DNA of 64,000 bases from Escherichia coli (GTDB taxonomy: Bacteria > Pseudomonadota > Gammaproteobacteria > Enterobacterales > Enterobacteriaceae), in assembly GCF_003334335.1 (NCBI RefSeq), contig NZ_QOWQ01000013.1; one strand, written 5' to 3'. The notes beneath the pieces are model-generated. The model searched no databases and was not told the DNA's origin. It was given only the letters and a program-made list of their open reading frames with translations. Position 1 is the first letter of the stretch. Every line of letters begins with the position of its first letter. A program made the translations under genes and the position numbers. Positions 15,498 to 61,637 of the stretch are shown piece by piece.

Positions 15498-15539
15498 GTA
15501 TTTAGCGCGGTGCGGATGTGCGCCAACACACCCGCACCG

Positions 15540-15620
15540 CTAATCACAATCACTATTTATAGGGAATAGCAGTTATGACTGACACGCATTCTATTGCACA
15601 ACCGTTCGAAGCAGAAGTCT
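15540..15620 (-). ncRNA. symR: SymR antisense sRNA (type I antitoxin) overlapping the symE 5' end; coordinates approximate
   Basis: Inferred from the known symE/symR arrangement; exact ends cannot be set from sequence alone. Confidence 0.3.
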
Positions 15621-48530: not shown

Positions 48531-49433
48531 TTATTGATAAACAAAAGTCACGCCAATAATCGATTGCACATTCCCTGCAGTCACCTGCCCTCCGGTACGT
48601 GCGTAATTTGCCGTTAATCCCAGACTTACCGCCGAAGTCCCTACTGCTCCTAACGATACCGTGTTATTCGCTGGAATAATCGTACCGTTGCGCGTCAACT
48701 GTACGCCGACGCCCTGCGCTGGTGAAAACGACGCGGTATTGGTGAAAATCGAGTTGCCCGCATCTGCGGTTGTGCCGGAGAGGTAAAACCCCAGGTTTTG
48801 GCTTTTCGCACAATAAACGGTAAGAGGAATCGGCACCGAACCGGGATAGTCCGGCAGAGTAACGGTGACATCACGAGCAGAAACATCGCAGCCGCCAGTA
48901 GGCACCACCACATCATTATTGGCGTAAATATTCCACACAAACTGGAAATCATCGCTGTTATAGTTGTTGGTCTGTCGCAAAATAAGCACGGCAATTAATG
49001 AGCCAGCTTTAATCGCCACCCCGCCCGCACTGCTCACAGGCGTCAAATAAAGCGCCACCGGCCACGGCTTATCCGTTCTCGAATTATAAACAACGCGCGG
49101 CGTTTCGCTGGTGGTAGGAAATGGATAGCTACTGCCACTATATTTTACGGTCCCGGAAAAATTAGATAACACGCCGCCATAAGCAGAGCCTCGTTGCAGT
49201 GTGACATAGTCTGTAATGGTTTCCGGGTAATCGTTATGGCAAAAGATTTGCGTCGAAAGATCTACGACCAGGTTTTGCCCCACATTCACGGCGGGCGCAA
49301 GGTTTACATAAACATTGGCGCTGCCACCGCCAATAGGGATAGCGGTGCCATTGGCGGTTTTACAGGCGAATGACCAGGCATTTACCGACCAGCCCATCAG
49401 CAGTGCAGCAAACAGGTTAATAACTCGTTTCAT
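48531..49433 (-). CDS. fimH: Type 1 fimbrial adhesin FimH (mannose-binding)
   Basis: ORF 48531..49442; start MKRVINLFAALLMGWSVNAWS gives 300 aa; FACKTANGTAIPIGGGSANVYVNLAP lectin-domain start. Confidence 0.95.
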   Translation of the reverse strand: MKRVINLFAALLMGWSVNAWSFACKTANGTAIPIGGGSANVYVNLAPAVNVGQNLVVDLSTQIFCHNDYPETITDYVTLQRGSAYGGVLSNFSGTVKYSGSSYPFPTTSETPRVVYNSRTDKPWPVALYLTPVSSAGGVAIKAGSLIAVLILRQTNNYNSDDFQFVWNIYANNDVVVPTGGCDVSARDVTVTLPDYPGSVPIPLTVYCAKSQNLGFYLSGTTADAGNSIFTNTASFSPAQGVGVQLTRNGTIIPANNTVSLGAVGTSAVSLGLTANYARTGGQVTAGNVQSIIGVTFVYQ

Positions 49434-49452
49434 TACAATCATCTCTTCGGCT

Positions 49453-49956
49453 TCAGCTGTAGGTATAGGTGATGCTAATCACTGCCTGAATGGTTCCCTG
49501 AGTGGCTCCGCCATTTACCGTCAATGCTCTGACCTGTAACGGGAAGTGCGCTGATTGTGAGGAATCATCCACCTGAACTGTTTTGGTTGCGCCAGTATTC
49601 AATGTGTTGCCACTGTCATCCTGTAGCTCTAACTGGATGTTTTGCGCGGTCCCTTGGTTTTTATAATATCCGGTACTGTCGGCTGCCCCGCTGAAGCTGG
49701 CGGTGACCCTCGACGTTCCCACCGGACAATTAGTCAACTCAAGCGCAACATCATGCCAGGCCGATGCCGCCCCGGCAGACATCAGACTGAAAGAATAAAG
49801 ATCGCCGCGATCTACCGTGGCATTGGTGGTGGAAACCGTGCACGGTTTGGCGACGACCTTACCGTTCACCGTGATGGTGACATCGGCTGCCTGTATCGTC
49901 GCACTTGCGAGCGCCAATATTGCCGCCAATACATACCCACGTTTGCACCATTTCAT
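49453..49956 (-). CDS. fimG: Type 1 fimbrial minor subunit FimG
   Basis: 167-aa pilin-like ORF within the fim operon. Confidence 0.92.
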   Translation of the reverse strand: MKWCKRGYVLAAILALASATIQAADVTITVNGKVVAKPCTVSTTNATVDRGDLYSFSLMSAGAASAWHDVALELTNCPVGTSRVTASFSGAADSTGYYKNQGTAQNIQLELQDDSGNTLNTGATKTVQVDDSSQSAHFPLQVRALTVNGGATQGTIQAVISITYTYS

Positions 49957-49968
49957 GAGCATCTCCAG

Positions 49969-50499
49969 TTACTGATATTCAAGAGTGAAGGTAGCCGTGG
50001 CATTGATATGCCCCGCAGTGACAGGCACCTGTGTCGCCATTAGCCGGGCGTAAAAATTCAGCGTATTTGGTTTACCCGGCGTCAGGGTCGTCCACGAAAT
50101 CGCGGACGATGGGGCATTAATGGGTATCTGATTTTGTTGCTCATTCAGAAGCTGTATTCCCAGTCCCGCAGCCGCTGACACCGTATTTTCAAGTGCAAGC
50201 AGGTTGGCATTGTGGCTATCTGCAACACCGGTAAACCCAACTTTTACGGCAGAAACGGCATTACCACAGGGTGACAGCAAAATACGAAATGGAACGACAG
50301 GAGTCGTCGCGCCAATGTTGTTAAATTGCTTCGCCGCGTTTTCCATCAGATCAACAGTAAAATTGGTTGATTCAGCGGCCACACTACAGCCGTTATCTCT
50401 GACATAGCCGCGGATAGTAATCGTGCTATCCGCAGCCAAAGCGTGACTTACCGCCAGCCACAAAAAAGCGCACAGAAGATAAAAAGGTTTGTTTCTCAT
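49969..50499 (-). CDS. fimF: Type 1 fimbrial minor subunit FimF
   Basis: 176-aa pilin-like ORF. Confidence 0.92.
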
Positions 50500-50508
50500 C
50501 ACGCCCCC

Positions 50509-53145
50509 TTAACGACATTCAGCTGATAGCTGGGTTAATAACTGCTGCTGACTCTCTGGTGGCAGTTGATAATTGGCGACACAGTGAGCATTTTCCTCTT
50601 CTCCCCATTTCACCTGAACTTTTCCCGCTAAAGGCATTCCGCTGAGGTAAACCTGACCATTATCCGCAACAATGCCGCTACTCTGGCTACTCTCTGATGT
50701 CACCATCGCCCCAAACGGCAGCGGCTTATTATTGTGGGTTAGCGTCATGAGCAGTTTTATCCCAACGCGCGCTTTAAACTCTGCTCGCACGATCGCCCCA
50801 CGGGTGGGAACAACGTTAGCGACCGCGTTATCTAAATCGACGTTATCAGCCAGGGTATTGGTATCCAGCGCTACTCTGTTCTCCCGATATTCAGTGGCAT
50901 AAGGCAGCACGGCATAACCGCGCCAGTCGGTACGCACCCCCGTCTGGTTTTCGACTTTTGCATCTTTTGCGCCAGGCGCTTTAACAAGCACCACCGTATC
51001 GTTTAACGGCTGCCCCAGCGTTACGCCATTGGCATGAGCCAGTACCCCACCGCTGACTCCGTAATAGGGCTGCTTAATATCATCGCTATGGCTGTAACCG
51101 ATGTTGGCATTGCCGTAACCACCGCGATAATTCAGCGTGGCGTAGCCTGTACTTCCGCTATTACCATCACCTCCCCCGGCGTAACCGGTTTGCACGCTAT
51201 AGCTGAGGTTGTTGTCTTCCAGCAACGTACCGTATACACCGACCAGATTGGTCATCCGACCGTTGAGATCGTGTGACATGCTGTAACTGGCACTGGCATG
51301 TCGCCACTGAGATTTACTGTCAGAACGCAGCCAGTGGCTGAAAGGAATATTGACGTTAAGCGCTAACATCTGATCCCGTCCTTTTTGCCAGGCGTTTTTC
51401 GTCAGGCTATAGCTGAGCGTCCAGTTGATATCTTCGAATGCAGTATTTAAACCAGCCTGGAATTGCTCATCGACATTACTCGTTCCCCAATAAGTTTGAT
51501 GGCTACCACTCAAATACAGTGTTGATGTGCGCCCGAGTTGCTGAGTAACGGTGAGTTGTAATTTCCCGCGTTTGTTATAAGCGAGATTGTAATAGTCGGT
51601 GAATTTCGGCTTAACCTGAATAACACCATCCTGTGTTTCGATGTTGTAGCCATTCATTCGACTGTATGTTGTATCAGCGAAATTAAAATATCCGCTGGTC
51701 GAATAACGGTAACCCACTAACTGAATATTCGTGCCTGATTCATTGAGCGATTTGTTATAGAGAAAACGCACCGATTGTCCGTCATGCTGACTGTCATCGG
51801 GAAGTGTGGAATTAGCCTGCGTCATATCCACAGACAGAGCGCCCAGTGCCCCCATGTTTTTCCCGATACCGAAATTAAACGCACGATAACGATCCGACAG
51901 TTGCGTTCCACCATATATTGTCCAGCCAGCCGGAAGGCCGTGGAGTAATGTACTCTGGAAAAAGCGGGGTTTTTCCTGCTGCGCATTTCCACTACGGTAT
52001 TCTCCTGCCGTAATGGAATAACGAGTATGCCCTTCACGTTGCAAAAGCGGGACTGACGAATAGGGTACGGTAAAGATCTGCGTGCTGCCGTCAGCCTCTT
52101 TAATCGTTACCTGCAAGTCACCACTATTACCTGCGGCATAGATATCGTTGATGGTAAAAGGCCCCGGCGGCACCGTACTATTATAAATGTCATACCCATT
52201 TTGTTTAATAGTGACCTGTGCAGTACCACGAGCAATACCGTGGATCACCGGGGCAAATCCTCTTTGGCTATCGGGTAACATATTGTCATCTGAGGCCAAT
52301 TGTGCGCCGCGAAAGTTAATACCATCGAAAATATCGCCCTGGGTATAACCATCACCCAGCGTCAGCCGGGAACGTAACGGAATTATGTCTCGCTCAAGCC
52401 AGGTATTGATATGCTGCCATTTATTTTTGCTACCTGATGAACTGTCGCTACTGTTATAACTCCAGGTGGTATTGTCGCGTAAACGCCACGCACCAATATT
52501 TAACCCACTCTGTAGGTTTAAATATGCATAATGGCTGTTACCCCCAATCCGATTCTGTACACTATTTCCGCTGAAATTATAATTGAGCAATCCGGCATTA
52601 ATACCAGGATCCCATAACTCAGGAGGAATATAACCACGCGCGCGATTACTCATAAATGCCTGAGGGATCGTCAGGTTGAGTCGCTGCTGACCAACATCCA
52701 GATGCGCAGTAGCGTCATGGATCATTGAGGTTAATGGCACGCAGGCATCATCCGCCAGCAGATTCATACCGGAGACAGAAGCCGTATTCAGCCCCATACT
52801 TGCAAGTTGCGCGCGTGTCAGGCAGGGAACAATCCCTTGTTCACTGTCGCCCGTATTAAATGTGACATCACGCGTTGCCATATAACCATTATTCAAATAG
52901 ATATCGACACGATACGTCCCTGGCGGTAATTCTTGCCCATTTTCAAAACGCGATAAATCGGCCACAGCCTGGGGATCATCCGCTAAAAAGCGCGGATTAA
53001 AATAGAGTTCGGCAGATGACAAAGGTGCCTGTGCGGCAAAAGCACAGGCGACAAAGAGCCGGACAAAAAAACCAGCCAAACGATGCTTACGAATATGCAA
53101 GCATTGTGTGTTTCGCTGGTAAAGTCTTAAATTCAGATATGACAT
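50509..53145 (-). CDS. fimD: Type 1 fimbrial outer-membrane usher FimD
   Basis: 878-aa usher ORF. Confidence 0.95.
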   Translation of the reverse strand: MSYLNLRLYQRNTQCLHIRKHRLAGFFVRLFVACAFAAQAPLSSAELYFNPRFLADDPQAVADLSRFENGQELPPGTYRVDIYLNNGYMATRDVTFNTGDSEQGIVPCLTRAQLASMGLNTASVSGMNLLADDACVPLTSMIHDATAHLDVGQQRLNLTIPQAFMSNRARGYIPPELWDPGINAGLLNYNFSGNSVQNRIGGNSHYAYLNLQSGLNIGAWRLRDNTTWSYNSSDSSSGSKNKWQHINTWLERDIIPLRSRLTLGDGYTQGDIFDGINFRGAQLASDDNMLPDSQRGFAPVIHGIARGTAQVTIKQNGYDIYNSTVPPGPFTINDIYAAGNSGDLQVTIKEADGSTQIFTVPYSSVPLLQREGHTRYSITAGEYRSGNAQQEKPRFFQSTLLHGLPAGWTIYGGTQLSDRYRAFNFGIGKNMGALGALSVDMTQANSTLPDDSQHDGQSVRFLYNKSLNESGTNIQLVGYRYSTSGYFNFADTTYSRMNGYNIETQDGVIQVKPKFTDYYNLAYNKRGKLQLTVTQQLGRTSTLYLSGSHQTYWGTSNVDEQFQAGLNTAFEDINWTLSYSLTKNAWQKGRDQMLALNVNIPFSHWLRSDSKSQWRHASASYSMSHDLNGRMTNLVGVYGTLLEDNNLSYSVQTGYAGGGDGNSGSTGYATLNYRGGYGNANIGYSHSDDIKQPYYGVSGGVLAHANGVTLGQPLNDTVVLVKAPGAKDAKVENQTGVRTDWRGYAVLPYATEYRENRVALDTNTLADNVDLDNAVANVVPTRGAIVRAEFKARVGIKLLMTLTHNNKPLPFGAMVTSESSQSSGIVADNGQVYLSGMPLAGKVQVKWGEEENAHCVANYQLPPESQQQLLTQLSAECR

Positions 53146-53211
53146 TATTCCTCCGGTTTAAAATCACCTGGCAGTCAATTCTTTTTATTCAGGCGAAAAA
53201 TTCCCCCTGCG

Positions 53212-53937
53212 TTATTCCATTACGCCCGTCATTTTGGGGGTAAGTGCGCCATAATCATTTATTGTTCGGTAAGTAATATTGCTTCCTGCATCAGAAGGCA
53301 ATTTAACCGTGCTTTCGCCCATTGGAGGCACCAATGCATTTTCAAGAACCCGGGTTCCGGCATTCAACTCTGTTACCGTCAGGTAATAGGGTGTCGGGTT
53401 AATCAGAGTCAGAGAATTCGCGCTACGACGAAATCTTAATTTTTCTGCGGCCTGATCGGGTGGCAACGCTAATTTAGCCGGGCGATAGTACAGTTTAATG
53501 CGGCTGATAATTGCGAGCTGTAGCGTATTCTCAGTCAATTTTGATTTATCCATTGACGGAATCGCTTTAACGTTCATCCAGAATAAACTTTCCCGATCCT
53601 GTGGCAATTGGTTATTTGTTGCATCAAGAATACGTAAGGTATTCTCTTTTTTTCCCTTCATCGCAAACAGAGGTGGCGTCACGATAAAACGACCATCCTT
53701 TACACCATCGGCATTTTCCACCCATGATTGAATTAAATAGGTGCTATTTTCATCATTATTTGTCACGGCAAGTTGCACTTGTTTTTGCCCTGCCGGATAA
53801 ATTACGCGAGTCGCACCTAAGGCCACTCCCGCTTCGGCGCGTCCGGCAACCATCATTGCCATGAACATCAGGATACCTGCCAGCAAGCAGAATGTTATTT
53901 CCTGCGATTTCCTTACATTGACGTTTTTATTACTCAC
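53212..53937 (-). CDS. fimC: Type 1 fimbrial periplasmic chaperone FimC
   Basis: 241-aa PapD-like chaperone ORF. Confidence 0.95.
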   Translation of the reverse strand: MSNKNVNVRKSQEITFCLLAGILMFMAMMVAGRAEAGVALGATRVIYPAGQKQVQLAVTNNDENSTYLIQSWVENADGVKDGRFIVTPPLFAMKGKKENTLRILDATNNQLPQDRESLFWMNVKAIPSMDKSKLTENTLQLAIISRIKLYYRPAKLALPPDQAAEKLRFRRSANSLTLINPTPYYLTVTELNAGTRVLENALVPPMGESTVKLPSDAGSNITYRTINDYGALTPKMTGVME

Positions 53938-53973
53938 TGTCCTGTTCCTGTTATCACATTATCTGCTGAACAA

Positions 53974-54513
53974 TTACTGATAGGTTAAAGAGAACCAGGC
54001 CTGGGCATTGGCGATGCCGCCAGTAACCCGACGCCCGGTAGCACGATATTTGGCGATGAAATGTAGCGAAGTAGAGCCTGAGTAAAGCCGTTTCCAGTTT
54101 GCTGGAGGACGATTAATCGGTACGAGGTTTCCTTCATCATCAAACAACGCTACGCCAATATTGGTGGCTATCCCTGGCCCCTCTCCCACGGAAAGCACAT
54201 CCGGATTTTTACCATCCGCGACACCGTGAAACGCCACACCCACACGTTCACTCACCACCGTGCTACATTCCCGTAAATGAATAACAAAAGGCACCGGTGC
54301 GCTATCTTCCCCTACCGCATGAAACCGGTTACTGCTGATTTGCCCCATATTGACCGTCATTTGTTTATCACCGGCTTCAATCCGGCAAGTTTCCGCAATA
54401 ATGACGCCCTGAAATTGCATATTTCCGCCGGGCAGCGTGGTGTTCCATTTATTTCCGGCCAGAGCAAACATTGGCAGCAACGACGCTAATAGAAATAATC
54501 TCTTCCTTTTCAT
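53974..54513 (-). CDS. fimI: Type 1 fimbrial protein FimI
   Basis: ORF 53974..54645; start [19 protein letters not shown] at 54513 gives 179 aa. Confidence 0.88.
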
Positions 54514-54577
54514 CGTTATTTTTATCGCACAAGGGTGGGCATCCCTGCCCGTAATGACGTCCCTGAACCTGGGTAGG

Positions 54578-55132
54578 TTATTGATACTGAACCTTGAAGG
54601 TCGCATCCGCATTAGCAGCACCCGGGGTTGCCTCGCCGATTGCATAATAACGCGCCTGGAACGGAATGGTGTTGGTACCGTTATTCAGGGTTGTTTGTGC
54701 ACTAAATGTCGCACCGTCCAGCGTCAGCTCATTTCCTGTTCTGTCCAGTATCTGCACACCAACATTTGTTGCGCTACCCGCAGCTGAACTCTGCAGAGCC
54801 AGTACTTTAGGATGAGCACTGTCAATCGCAGTCCCCAAGAAGGCAACAGCGGCTTTTGTGGCAACACTGGTATCGCAATCATTCAGCTGAATGTTAAAAC
54901 CGACAGCAGAGCTGGTTGCTCCAGTCTGCTTCAGACTAGCGGTACGAACCTGGCCCAACTGAACGGTTTGATCAACAGAGCCTGCATCAACTGCGCAAGC
55001 GGCGTTAACAACTTCCCCTTTAAAGTGAACGGTCCCACCATTTACCGTCGTGGGTGTAGTTTCAGCCAGAGCCGCTGTAGAACTCAGGGACAGAGCCGAC
55101 AGAACAACAATTGCCAGAGTTTTAATTTTCAT
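54578..55132 (-). CDS. fimA: Type 1 fimbrial major subunit FimA
   Basis: 184-aa pilin [26 protein letters not shown]... Confidence 0.95.
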
Positions 55133-55251
55133 ACTGCTTTCCTTTCAAAAAACTATTTCTAAATCGACATGGGCAGTCGTTCCGTACACTTTGTTTTGTC
55201 AACGAGTTTGACTGCCAACACTGCACAGTTTCCCCCCAAAAGATGAAACAT

Positions 55252-55566
55252 TTGGGGCCAAAACTGTCCATATCATAAATAAGTTACGTATTTTTTCTCA
55301 AGCATAAAAATATTATAAAACGACAAAAAGCATCTAACTGTTTGATATATAAATCATTTCTCTTGTAAATTAATTTCACATCACCTCCGCTAAATGTAAA
55401 GCTAACGTTTCTGTGTCTCGAAGCAACTTCCTCATTCTTCTCTCCAAAAACCACCTCATGCAATATAAAAATCTATAAATAAAGATAACAATAGAATATC
55501 AAGCCAACAAATAAACTGAAAAAGTTTGTGCGCGATGCTTTCCTCTATGAGTCAAAATGGCCCCAA
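55252..55566. promoter_or_regulatory. fimS: fimS invertible phase-variation switch carrying the fimA promoter; appears to be in the ON orientation
   Basis: 9-bp inverted repeats ttggggcca (55252-55260) and tggccccaa (55558-55566); minus-strand TTGAGA-N18-TATGAT promoter-like hexamers near the fimA-proximal repeat, pointing toward fimA. Confidence 0.8.
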
Positions 55567-55613
55567 TTGTCTTGTATTTATTTGTTTTTTACCTTTACTA
55601 TCAATAAGTTAAA

Positions 55614-56210
55614 TTAAACCTCTTCTCTTTTTAATTTTTCGTTTATGAGATTATTTCTTTCCCATAATCCGGCAAAACGAGCAGCATTACTGGCGGTATA
55701 ACGCACAGTATGGCGAATATTTCGATGCCCGAGATAATCCTGAATTAAACGGGTATCTGCACCACGCTCCGCCAGTTCATAACCGCAAGCATGCCTTAAC
55801 ATATGAGGATGAGTCTGCGTTACGGTTCCAGCTTCAATACCGGCATCGCGAATAATGCGATAGGCCTGCTGGCGAGAAAGCCGACTCCCGCGGCGAGAAA
55901 TAAATATAGCGTCGGTCCGGTCAGCGCCTTTCCAGTTAGCACGTTCCTGGGTCCAGCGTTCCACGGCTTCACGCTCATCAAAACGTAACGGGTGAACGGT
56001 AGAAAATCCGTTCTTCAGTCGGCGAATATTTATTCGACCTTCATTAAGGTCAAGGTCCTGATAATGCAGATCAAGCAGTTCACTAATACGCATCCCATGC
56101 CGATATGCCAACAGAATAAGACAATAATCTCTGGCTCCCGTTGCCCCGTAACAAACCGCCTGCATCATGGCCTGAACTTCTTTACCGGTAAGATAACGAC
56201 GTTTACTCAC
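55614..56210 (-). CDS. fimE: Tyrosine recombinase FimE (switch ON-to-OFF)
   Basis: 198-aa ORF with tyrosine-recombinase C-terminal motifs (HMLRHACGY...LGHRNIRHTVRYT). Confidence 0.93.
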   Translation of the reverse strand: MSKRRYLTGKEVQAMMQAVCYGATGARDYCLILLAYRHGMRISELLDLHYQDLDLNEGRINIRRLKNGFSTVHPLRFDEREAVERWTQERANWKGADRTDAIFISRRGSRLSRQQAYRIIRDAGIEAGTVTQTHPHMLRHACGYELAERGADTRLIQDYLGHRNIRHTVRYTASNAARFAGLWERNNLINEKLKREEV

Positions 56211-56686
56211 AATAGTAGTACTCCTGACTGAGATATATTTGAATGAATACCTATAGGAAACCTCAATCGGTCAAAATTAGCCCAATAGATAAAAAGATAA
56301 CCACACACGAAGTGATGTGGCTATCAGTCAATTACATTAAATATCATACAAAAATAAAATATCACTGATGTGATAACATCTATTTTCATTGATTTGATTC
56401 AATATAACAATAGATTGCAGTGGATTAACTTCCAGTTGCTTAAAAAATAAAGAAAAAATGTGAAAACAGATGAATTTAAGTGATGTGTAAATTTATGAAT
56501 GATTTTGTTTATTTATTTTGAAGAACATAAACCATTGTATTTTGTATGGATGTGGTTAACTTAATGTTTATTATTATAATTAAGAATCACACTTACAATA
56601 ACATCAATTAATAAATGGTTAATCATTTTTGATATATCGTAAGAATAATGTAGTTTTTAACACCATCCCTGGTATCTCAACTATCT

Positions 56687-57289
56687 CTATAAAACAGCGT
56701 GACGCTGTCGTCCTCTGGCCCTATCCCAGATGCCGTAAAAACGCCCTGCATTGCTGGCGGTATACCAGACAGTATGACGAATATTGCGATGCCCAAGATA
56801 ATCCTGGATAAGTCGCGTATCTATTCCCATATTCGCCAAAGCAAAACCACACGAATGGCGTAACATGTGCGGATGAATCTCCAGTGACAACCCGGCATTA
56901 CCACCGGAAGTCGAGATAATATGGTAAAACTGTTGCCGAGAAAGCGGATTCCCCTTACGCGATAAAAATACCCATTCGCTCTCAGCATGCGGGTACGAAG
57001 TACGGATACTCAACCAGTTTTTTAAAGCCTGAACTTCTTTGTTCAATAGCGGGTGCGTTGTTGAAAAGCCTTTTTTTAATCGATGGATATAGATACACTT
57101 TGCCTTAAGATCAATATCCGAAATCCTCAATCGACAAATTTCACTCGCCCGGAAACCATGAATAAAACAAAGCAAAGTCAGACAATAATTACGTGCTGCA
57201 TGAGGCCCGGTATTTGCTGCTTTAAGGAGTGATTCGATTTCACTATGGGTCAGGAAGTTCCTTTTTTTGTTATCAGCCTTATTCTTCAT
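56687..57289 (-). CDS. fimB: Tyrosine recombinase FimB (bidirectional switching)
   Basis: 200-aa FimE paralogue with HMLRHSCGF...LGHRNIRHTVWYT. Confidence 0.93.
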   Translation of the reverse strand: MKNKADNKKRNFLTHSEIESLLKAANTGPHAARNYCLTLLCFIHGFRASEICRLRISDIDLKAKCIYIHRLKKGFSTTHPLLNKEVQALKNWLSIRTSYPHAESEWVFLSRKGNPLSRQQFYHIISTSGGNAGLSLEIHPHMLRHSCGFALANMGIDTRLIQDYLGHRNIRHTVWYTASNAGRFYGIWDRARGRQRHAVL

Positions 57290-60649: not shown

Positions 60650-61630
60650 ATGAACGCAATAATATCGCCTGATTATTACTATATTCTTACCGTTGCTGGT
60701 CAGTCTAATGCCATGGCGTATGGCGAAGGACTGCCATTACCGGACAGGGAAGATGCGCCTCATCCCAGAATTAAACAATTAGCGAGATTTGCGCATACGC
60801 ATCCCGGAGGCCCGTCATGTCACTTTAACGACATTATTCCACTGACTCACTGCCCACACGATGTTCAGGATATGCAGGGTTATCACCATCCTCTGGCAAC
60901 GAATCATCAAACACAGTACGGCACCGTTGGCCAGGCACTGCATATAGCACGGAAATTACTGCCCTTTATTCCTGATAATGCAGGGGTTCTCATCGTTCCG
61001 TGTTGCCGTGGCGGATCGGCTTTTACCGCGGGCAGCGAAGGGACATATTCAGAACGGCACGGAGCCAGCCATGATGCTTGTCGTTGGGGAACGGATACTC
61101 CGCTATACCAGGATTTAGTCAGCAGAACGCGAGCCGCACTGGCAAAAAATCCGCATAACAAATTCCTCGGCGTATGCTGGATGCAAGGCGAATTTGACTT
61201 AATGACCAGTGACTACGCGTCACACCCTCAACACTTTAATCATATGGTTGAAGCCTTTCGTAGGGATCTAAAACAATACCATTCTCAGCTTAATAATATT
61301 ACTGACGCACCGTGGTTTTGCGGCGATACCACCTGGTACTGGAAAGAAAATTTCCCTCATGCGTATGAAGTTATTTATGGCAATTATCAAAATAATGTTT
61401 TAGCCAATATTATTTTCGTCGACTTCCAGCAACAAGGTGAAAGAGGACTGACGAACGCGCCTGATGAAGACCCGGACGATTTAAGCACGGGATATTACGG
61501 TTCAGCGTACCGGTCACCGGAGAACTGGACGACGGCACTGCGAAGCAGTCATTTCAGCACGGCAGCCCGTCGGGGGATTATTTCTGACAAGTTTGTAGAA
61601 GCAATTTTGCAGTTTTGGCGCGAAAGGTGA
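60650..61630 (+). CDS. nanS: 9-O-acetyl-N-acetylneuraminate esterase NanS (YjhS)
   Basis: ORF 60623..61630; start MNAIISPDYYYILTVAGQSNAMAYG at 60650 gives 326 aa. Confidence 0.88.
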   Translation: MNAIISPDYYYILTVAGQSNAMAYGEGLPLPDREDAPHPRIKQLARFAHTHPGGPSCHFNDIIPLTHCPHDVQDMQGYHHPLATNHQTQYGTVGQALHIARKLLPFIPDNAGVLIVPCCRGGSAFTAGSEGTYSERHGASHDACRWGTDTPLYQDLVSRTRAALAKNPHNKFLGVCWMQGEFDLMTSDYASHPQHFNHMVEAFRRDLKQYHSQLNNITDAPWFCGDTTWYWKENFPHAYEVIYGNYQNNVLANIIFVDFQQQGERGLTNAPDEDPDDLSTGYYGSAYRSPENWTTALRSSHFSTAARRGIISDKFVEAILQFWRER

Positions 61631-61637
61631 GCGTTCA

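Follow-up and report, generated by a model that had tools for sequence, protein, structure and literature searches.

Inverted repeats bounding a short intergenic segment between a recombinase gene and a fimbrial subunit gene raise three questions about a locus: whether the segment is a phase switch, which way round it was assembled, and whether it still turns. These questions were asked of the segment between fimE and fimA in the window, the whole 64-kb stretch of Escherichia coli DNA that was analysed. The fimS switch of type 1 fimbriae is a textbook system and already known. The published element is 314 bp long with 9-bp flanking repeats of sequence 5'-TTGGGGCCA (PMC8777976), and the 314-bp invertible element of K-12 is credited to Abraham et al. 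1985 and Klemm 1986 in the citing passages of PMC9096935 and PMC8777976. The tyrosine integrases FimB and FimE cleave and rejoin DNA inside the 9-bp repeats, making contact with four flanking half-sites; two IHF sites are required for inversion, and Lrp and Fis set the directionality of the reaction (PMC9993118). The promoter of the fim operon is placed inside fimS, as is a Rho-dependent terminator that inversion attaches to or detaches from fimE, and FimE strongly prefers the ON substrate, which biases populations to OFF (PMC9993118). The internal promoter, the ON-to-OFF bias of FimE and the detachable fimE terminator are covered in PMC8777976, PMC9096935 and PMC9993118.

Results

The segment between fimE and fimA is fimS

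The 9-mer TTGGGGCCA occurs exactly twice in the window, as an inverted pair with no other copy. At least two copies were also present in 13 of 100 shuffles of the window, and the 9-mer pair alone is unremarkable against chance. The fimS call is significant because the pair is placed between fimE and fimA and because 303 of 315 aligned columns (96%) are identical to the fimS of K-12 MG1655 after inversion of the window segment. The uninverted alignment of the two elements has a negative global score. The original prediction described 9-bp repeats bounding a segment of about 314 bp between fimE and fimA; the repeats and their position were borne out, whereas the length was not, the element here being one base longer. 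The coordinates of the element, its repeats and the surrounding features are collected in Table 1.

Table 1. Features of the fim locus in the window. Coordinates are positions in the window; a dot marks a feature to which no strand applies.
Feature	Position	Strand	Remarks
fimS invertible element, both repeats included	55252..55566	-	315 bp; ON relative to fimE and fimA
fimA-proximal 9-bp inverted repeat (IRR)	55252..55260	+	exact match to TTGGGGCCA
fimE-proximal 9-bp inverted repeat (IRL)	55558..55566	-	exact match; TTGGGGCCA on the minus strand
fimA promoter (predicted)	55272..55301	-	-35 TTGAGA 55301-55296, 18-nt spacer, -10 TATGAT 55277-55272; reads toward fimA
5'-terminal hairpin of the ON-state fimA leader (predicted)	55222..55270	-	inverted repeat; RNA fold -22.8 kcal/mol, z = -3.3
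IHF consensus match inside fimS	55335..55347	-	TATCAAACAGTTA; exact match to WATCAANNNNTTR
IHF consensus match outside fimS, between the fimE stop and IRL	55599..55611	+	TATCAATAAGTTA; exact consensus
HinfI site GAGTC	55549..55553	.	asymmetric ON/OFF assay marker; at the fimE-proximal end here
BstUI site CGCG	55531..55534	.	asymmetric OL4/OL20 assay marker; 293 and 435 bp in the in-silico digest
fimB	56687..57289	-	tyrosine recombinase, inverts in both directions; 200-aa ORF, 100% identical to K-12 FimB
fimE	55614..56210	-	tyrosine recombinase biased ON-to-OFF; 198-aa ORF, 100% identical to K-12 FimE
fimA	54578..55132	-	major fimbrial subunit, first switch-driven gene; 184-aa ORF, 89.7% identical to K-12 FimA
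fimI	53974-54513	-	
fimC	53212-53937	-	
fimD	50509-53145	-	
fimF	49969-50499	-	
fimG	49453-49956	-	
fimH	48531-49433	-	

The genes lie on the minus strand in the order fimB-fimE-fimS-fimA-fimI-fimC-fimD-fimF-fimG-fimH, the same as in annotated MG1655 and other genomes. The six genes from fimI to fimH (48531..54513) are full-length ORFs without internal stops and encode products 98.3-100% identical to those of K-12. FimA has 184 residues compared with 182 in K-12 and contains no internal stops. Antigenic variation of this major subunit is known, and the lower FimA identity fits it. The K-12 and window loci have in common the TTGGGGCCA repeats, the position of the element between fimE and fimA, the promoter hexamers with their spacer, both IHF consensus matches, and identical FimB and FimE. 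The internal IHF match is unchanged in sequence in K-12 and sits there on the other strand with respect to fimE, as inversion predicts; the outer match (55599..55611) lies on the same strand relative to fimE in both.

The two elements differ in orientation, the window fimS being ON and the MG1655 reference OFF, and in sequence. The MG1655 fimS is 314 bp long compared with 315 bp in the window, and the differences amount to 11 substitutions, none of them in the promoter, plus one extra A. The extra A falls in the run at 55260-55263, which adjoins the promoter-proximal repeat on its inner side. The segment is almost certainly the E. coli fimS type 1 fimbrial phase switch in the ON orientation in the present assembly, and nothing contradicts this identification.

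Other elements of the locus were also compared. MG1655 is annotated with a 35-nt sRNA, fimR2, between fimA and fimI; the window has the identical sequence at 54533-54567 on the minus strand, and the entire fimA-fimI spacer is identical as well. A terminator-like hairpin followed by a T-run lies at 56296-56325 on the minus strand, in the spacer separating fimB from fimE, roughly 90 nt upstream of the start of fimE; it is the one such site in 55100-56700, and shuffled sequences give no fewer. Rfam and tRNA scans of the window returned no match at the fim locus, the only match being symR at 15504-15580.

The promoter and two digestion assays read ON

The original prediction took the switch to be phase-ON from minus-strand TTGAGA and TATGAT hexamers, about 18 bp apart and directed toward fimA. 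Both hexamers were found as described with an 18-nt spacer, and they point toward fimA, not toward fimE. The -10 hexamer ends 11 nt from the fimA-proximal repeat on the fimA strand. The TTGAGA-18-TATGAT site scores 10 of 12 against the sigma-70 consensus; it is the best promoter-like site in 55100-56700 and the sole strong one within the element. This interval holds 6 promoter-like sites compared with 6.6 expected from shuffles, and a consensus match on its own is weak evidence in such an AT-rich region. A full-text literature search found no published statement of the TTGAGA/TATGAT hexamers for fimA. The same hexamers in MG1655 read toward fimE. Alignment to a reference fimS, which the original prediction had proposed as a check, matches the OFF element of MG1655 only once the window sequence is inverted.

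Two published orientation assays were carried out in silico, each of which depends on an asymmetric restriction site within the element. Amplification with Phase_L/Phase_R and HinfI digestion gives a 489-bp band for ON and a 359-bp band for OFF (PMC4349694); the predicted fragments were 485 and 75 bp for the window (ON) and 359 and 201 bp for MG1655 (OFF). Amplification with OL4/OL20 and BstUI digestion gives 433 and 293 bp for ON and 539 and 187 bp for OFF (PMC9993118); the predicted fragments were 435 and 293 bp for the window and isolate 0H26 (ON) and 540 and 188 bp for MG1655 and isolate 0H25 (OFF). The offsets of a few bp from the published bands are counting conventions and small indels. 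The phase-ON reading is thus supported by the direction of the promoter, the inverted alignment to MG1655 and both in-silico assays.

The 315-bp allele inverts

The 315-bp fimS is base-for-base identical in 0H26 (CP081782, ON), 0H25 (CP081690, OFF) and EC416 (AP027404, OFF). The 0H26 allele has the same sequence and the same ON orientation as the window, whereas 0H25 and EC416 carry the allele OFF. Over the 3.8 kb fetched, the only difference between the two fim loci, that of 0H26 and that of 0H25, is the exact inversion of the 315-bp element. The element is a working switch and not a locked one, because 0H26 and 0H25 carry the one allele in opposite orientations, ON and OFF respectively, within otherwise identical 3.8-kb loci; the inversion is observed between these two isolates, which are other than the source strain of the window.

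The 315-bp allele is linked to two changes outside the element. One is an A-to-G change at about 55233, in the G-run outside IRR. The other is the A-run between the fimE stop and IRL (55585-55590), which is one base shorter in the 315-bp haplotype, so that standard PCR amplicons keep their K-12 length.

The ON orientation is a minority form among assemblies

The survey set consisted of 5,426 complete RefSeq E. coli genomes, 4,723 of them with the locus. The query was either the window's 801-bp ON configuration or a synthetic OFF version of it, and a genome was scored as collinear with a query when at least 80% of it was covered in one place. On this measure the ON form was collinear in 249 of the 4,723 genomes with the locus and the synthetic OFF form in 4,459, an ON share of 5.3%, or roughly one complete E. 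coli genome in 19. Queries of 80 bp spanning the junctions gave 245 ON and 4,446 OFF. The window's own junction haplotype was found as an exact ON junction in 22 genomes and as an OFF junction at 99% identity or more in about 350-375, which corresponds to roughly 6% ON, an approximate value, since partial matches may be counted in the identity bin. Nothing suggests that ON is favoured by the 315-bp allele.

Wild-type broth cultures have been measured at about 2.5% ON (PMC11421799), and the ON share of the assemblies fits the published behaviour of the switch. The ON orientation is a minority but unremarkable outcome. One assembly of DH5alpha (NZ_CP026085.1), a K-12 derivative, has fimS ON compared with OFF in the MG1655 reference, a further sign that the reference orientation is no lineage trait. 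In several relatives (NZ_CM134208.1, NZ_CP062853.1 and others), IS1A has inserted into the 801 bp that run from fimE through fimS to fimA, and the switch occurs in both orientations among them.

Alternative readings of the orientation

The ON call would be wrong if the functional fimA promoter lay elsewhere in the element and pointed toward fimE in the present assembly, the switch then really being OFF. Weak promoter-like matches do occur on both strands of the element, TTGATA-18-TAAATT at 55342-55371 (+) and TTGTTA-18-TATATT at 55491-55462 (-), and such matches are equally common in shuffled sequence. The HinfI and BstUI assays are independent of promoter prediction, and they give ON sizes for the window and OFF sizes for MG1655, which makes a true OFF state exceedingly improbable. 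A second reading accepts the ON orientation and attributes it to locking of the element by defective repeats, recombinases or half-sites, the extra A beside IRR being an example. The element is indeed 315 bp and not 314 bp, and the additional base sits just inside the promoter-proximal repeat, where half-sites flank the repeats (PMC9993118). Both repeats are exact, however, FimB and FimE are 100% identical to their K-12 counterparts, 0H26 carries the identical allele ON and 0H25 and EC416 carry it OFF, and the junction haplotype has the same ON fraction as the overall 5.2-5.3%. A locked element is very unlikely and was dropped as an explanation given the K-12-identical recombinases, the exact repeats, the occurrence of both orientations and the normal ON fraction.

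Within the reading of a working switch assembled ON, the orientation may be that of the culture majority or may have been picked by the assembler out of cells that were mixed or mostly OFF. The latter has a real though lesser chance of being correct. The switch turns within cultures, of which wild-type examples in broth were measured at about 2.5% ON (PMC11421799), 0H26 and 0H25 were assembled in opposite orientations with fim loci that are otherwise identical, and a 315-bp inversion between 9-bp repeats is resolved only by spanning reads. Against this, consensus assemblers normally follow the majority of the spanning reads. The ON share of about 5% among 4,708 assemblies is compatible with either. 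A single assembly gives the assembled orientation only, not the ON:OFF ratio of the culture, and the question does not affect the identification of fimS. The orientation is not to be read as a strain trait, because about 5% of assemblies are ON and because fim loci that are otherwise identical differ in it.

A hairpin is predicted at the start of the ON-state leader

We infer that transcription starts at about 55265-55267 and that the fimA leader is about 133 nt long. The leader is predicted to begin with a strong hairpin (Table 1). Its 5' arm is supplied by fimS sequence plus IRR, and its 3' arm lies in the fixed DNA beyond the element. The arms straddle the edge of the element, and so the full stem would form only in ON transcripts. 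The hairpin is retained in the 314- and 315-bp alleles sampled, and both the extra A of the 315-bp allele and the linked A-to-G change outside the element fall within it. Its variation consists of two sequence types and one single-nucleotide variant, too few for covariation. Extensive secondary structure in the fimA 5' UTR has already been mentioned (PMC11421799). The fold raises the speculative and rather doubtful idea that inversion may affect something besides the promoter, in that a chimeric ON-only leader hairpin of about 45 nt could stabilise or regulate the fim mRNA.

The wider window

The 24 kb at 40000-64000 of the window has its best matches among complete RefSeq E. coli genomes at 98.8-99.0% identity. 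The DNA of the close relative 102651 that matches 60650-64000 contains prophage-remnant fragments together with a gene for an HNH endonuclease and a truncated gene for a sialate O-acetylesterase. The hsdR/hsdM region in the left part of the window (1-25000) varies in structure, with at least 80% coverage in only 42 of the 5,426 genomes; its best matches are 97.1% identical and lie in 6-7 pieces over about 35-36 kb compared with 25 kb here. The Rfam model of the SymR antitoxin RNA is matched over its full length at 15504-15580 (minus strand, 94.3 bits), which places a symER/hsd immigration-control region in this part.

Discussion

The arrangement of the locus suggests how the switch would operate. 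FimB and FimE, encoded just upstream, would exchange strands within the 9-bp repeats and thereby flip the segment of about 314 bp, in a reaction that IHF, Lrp and Fis would shape. The sigma-70 fimA promoter lies near one end of the segment; here the predicted promoter adjoins the fimA-proximal repeat and would read across it into fimAICDFGH, so cells in the ON configuration would be expected to transcribe the fim operon. FimE, with its preference for the ON substrate, returns the switch to OFF. The ON form is therefore less stable and makes up the minority in most cultures, and the assembly consequently records the orientation of its consensus reads and not a lasting character of the strain.

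Salmonella (hin/hix) and Klebsiella (fimS) also have promoter inversion switches operated by recombinases. These share with the window an invertible segment, an outward promoter, short inverted repeats and an adjacent recombinase gene. Hin is a serine recombinase encoded inside its segment, whereas the two recombinases here are tyrosine recombinases encoded outside.

The ON finding adds nothing to the understanding of the fimS system, and the survey figure of about 5% ON is the one by-product of some use. The presence of the ON form in this assembly is useful for annotation, read mapping and the design of phase assays on the strain. Type 1 fimbriae are a major factor in colonisation and urinary-tract virulence, and whether a cell makes them is decided by the orientation of fimS.
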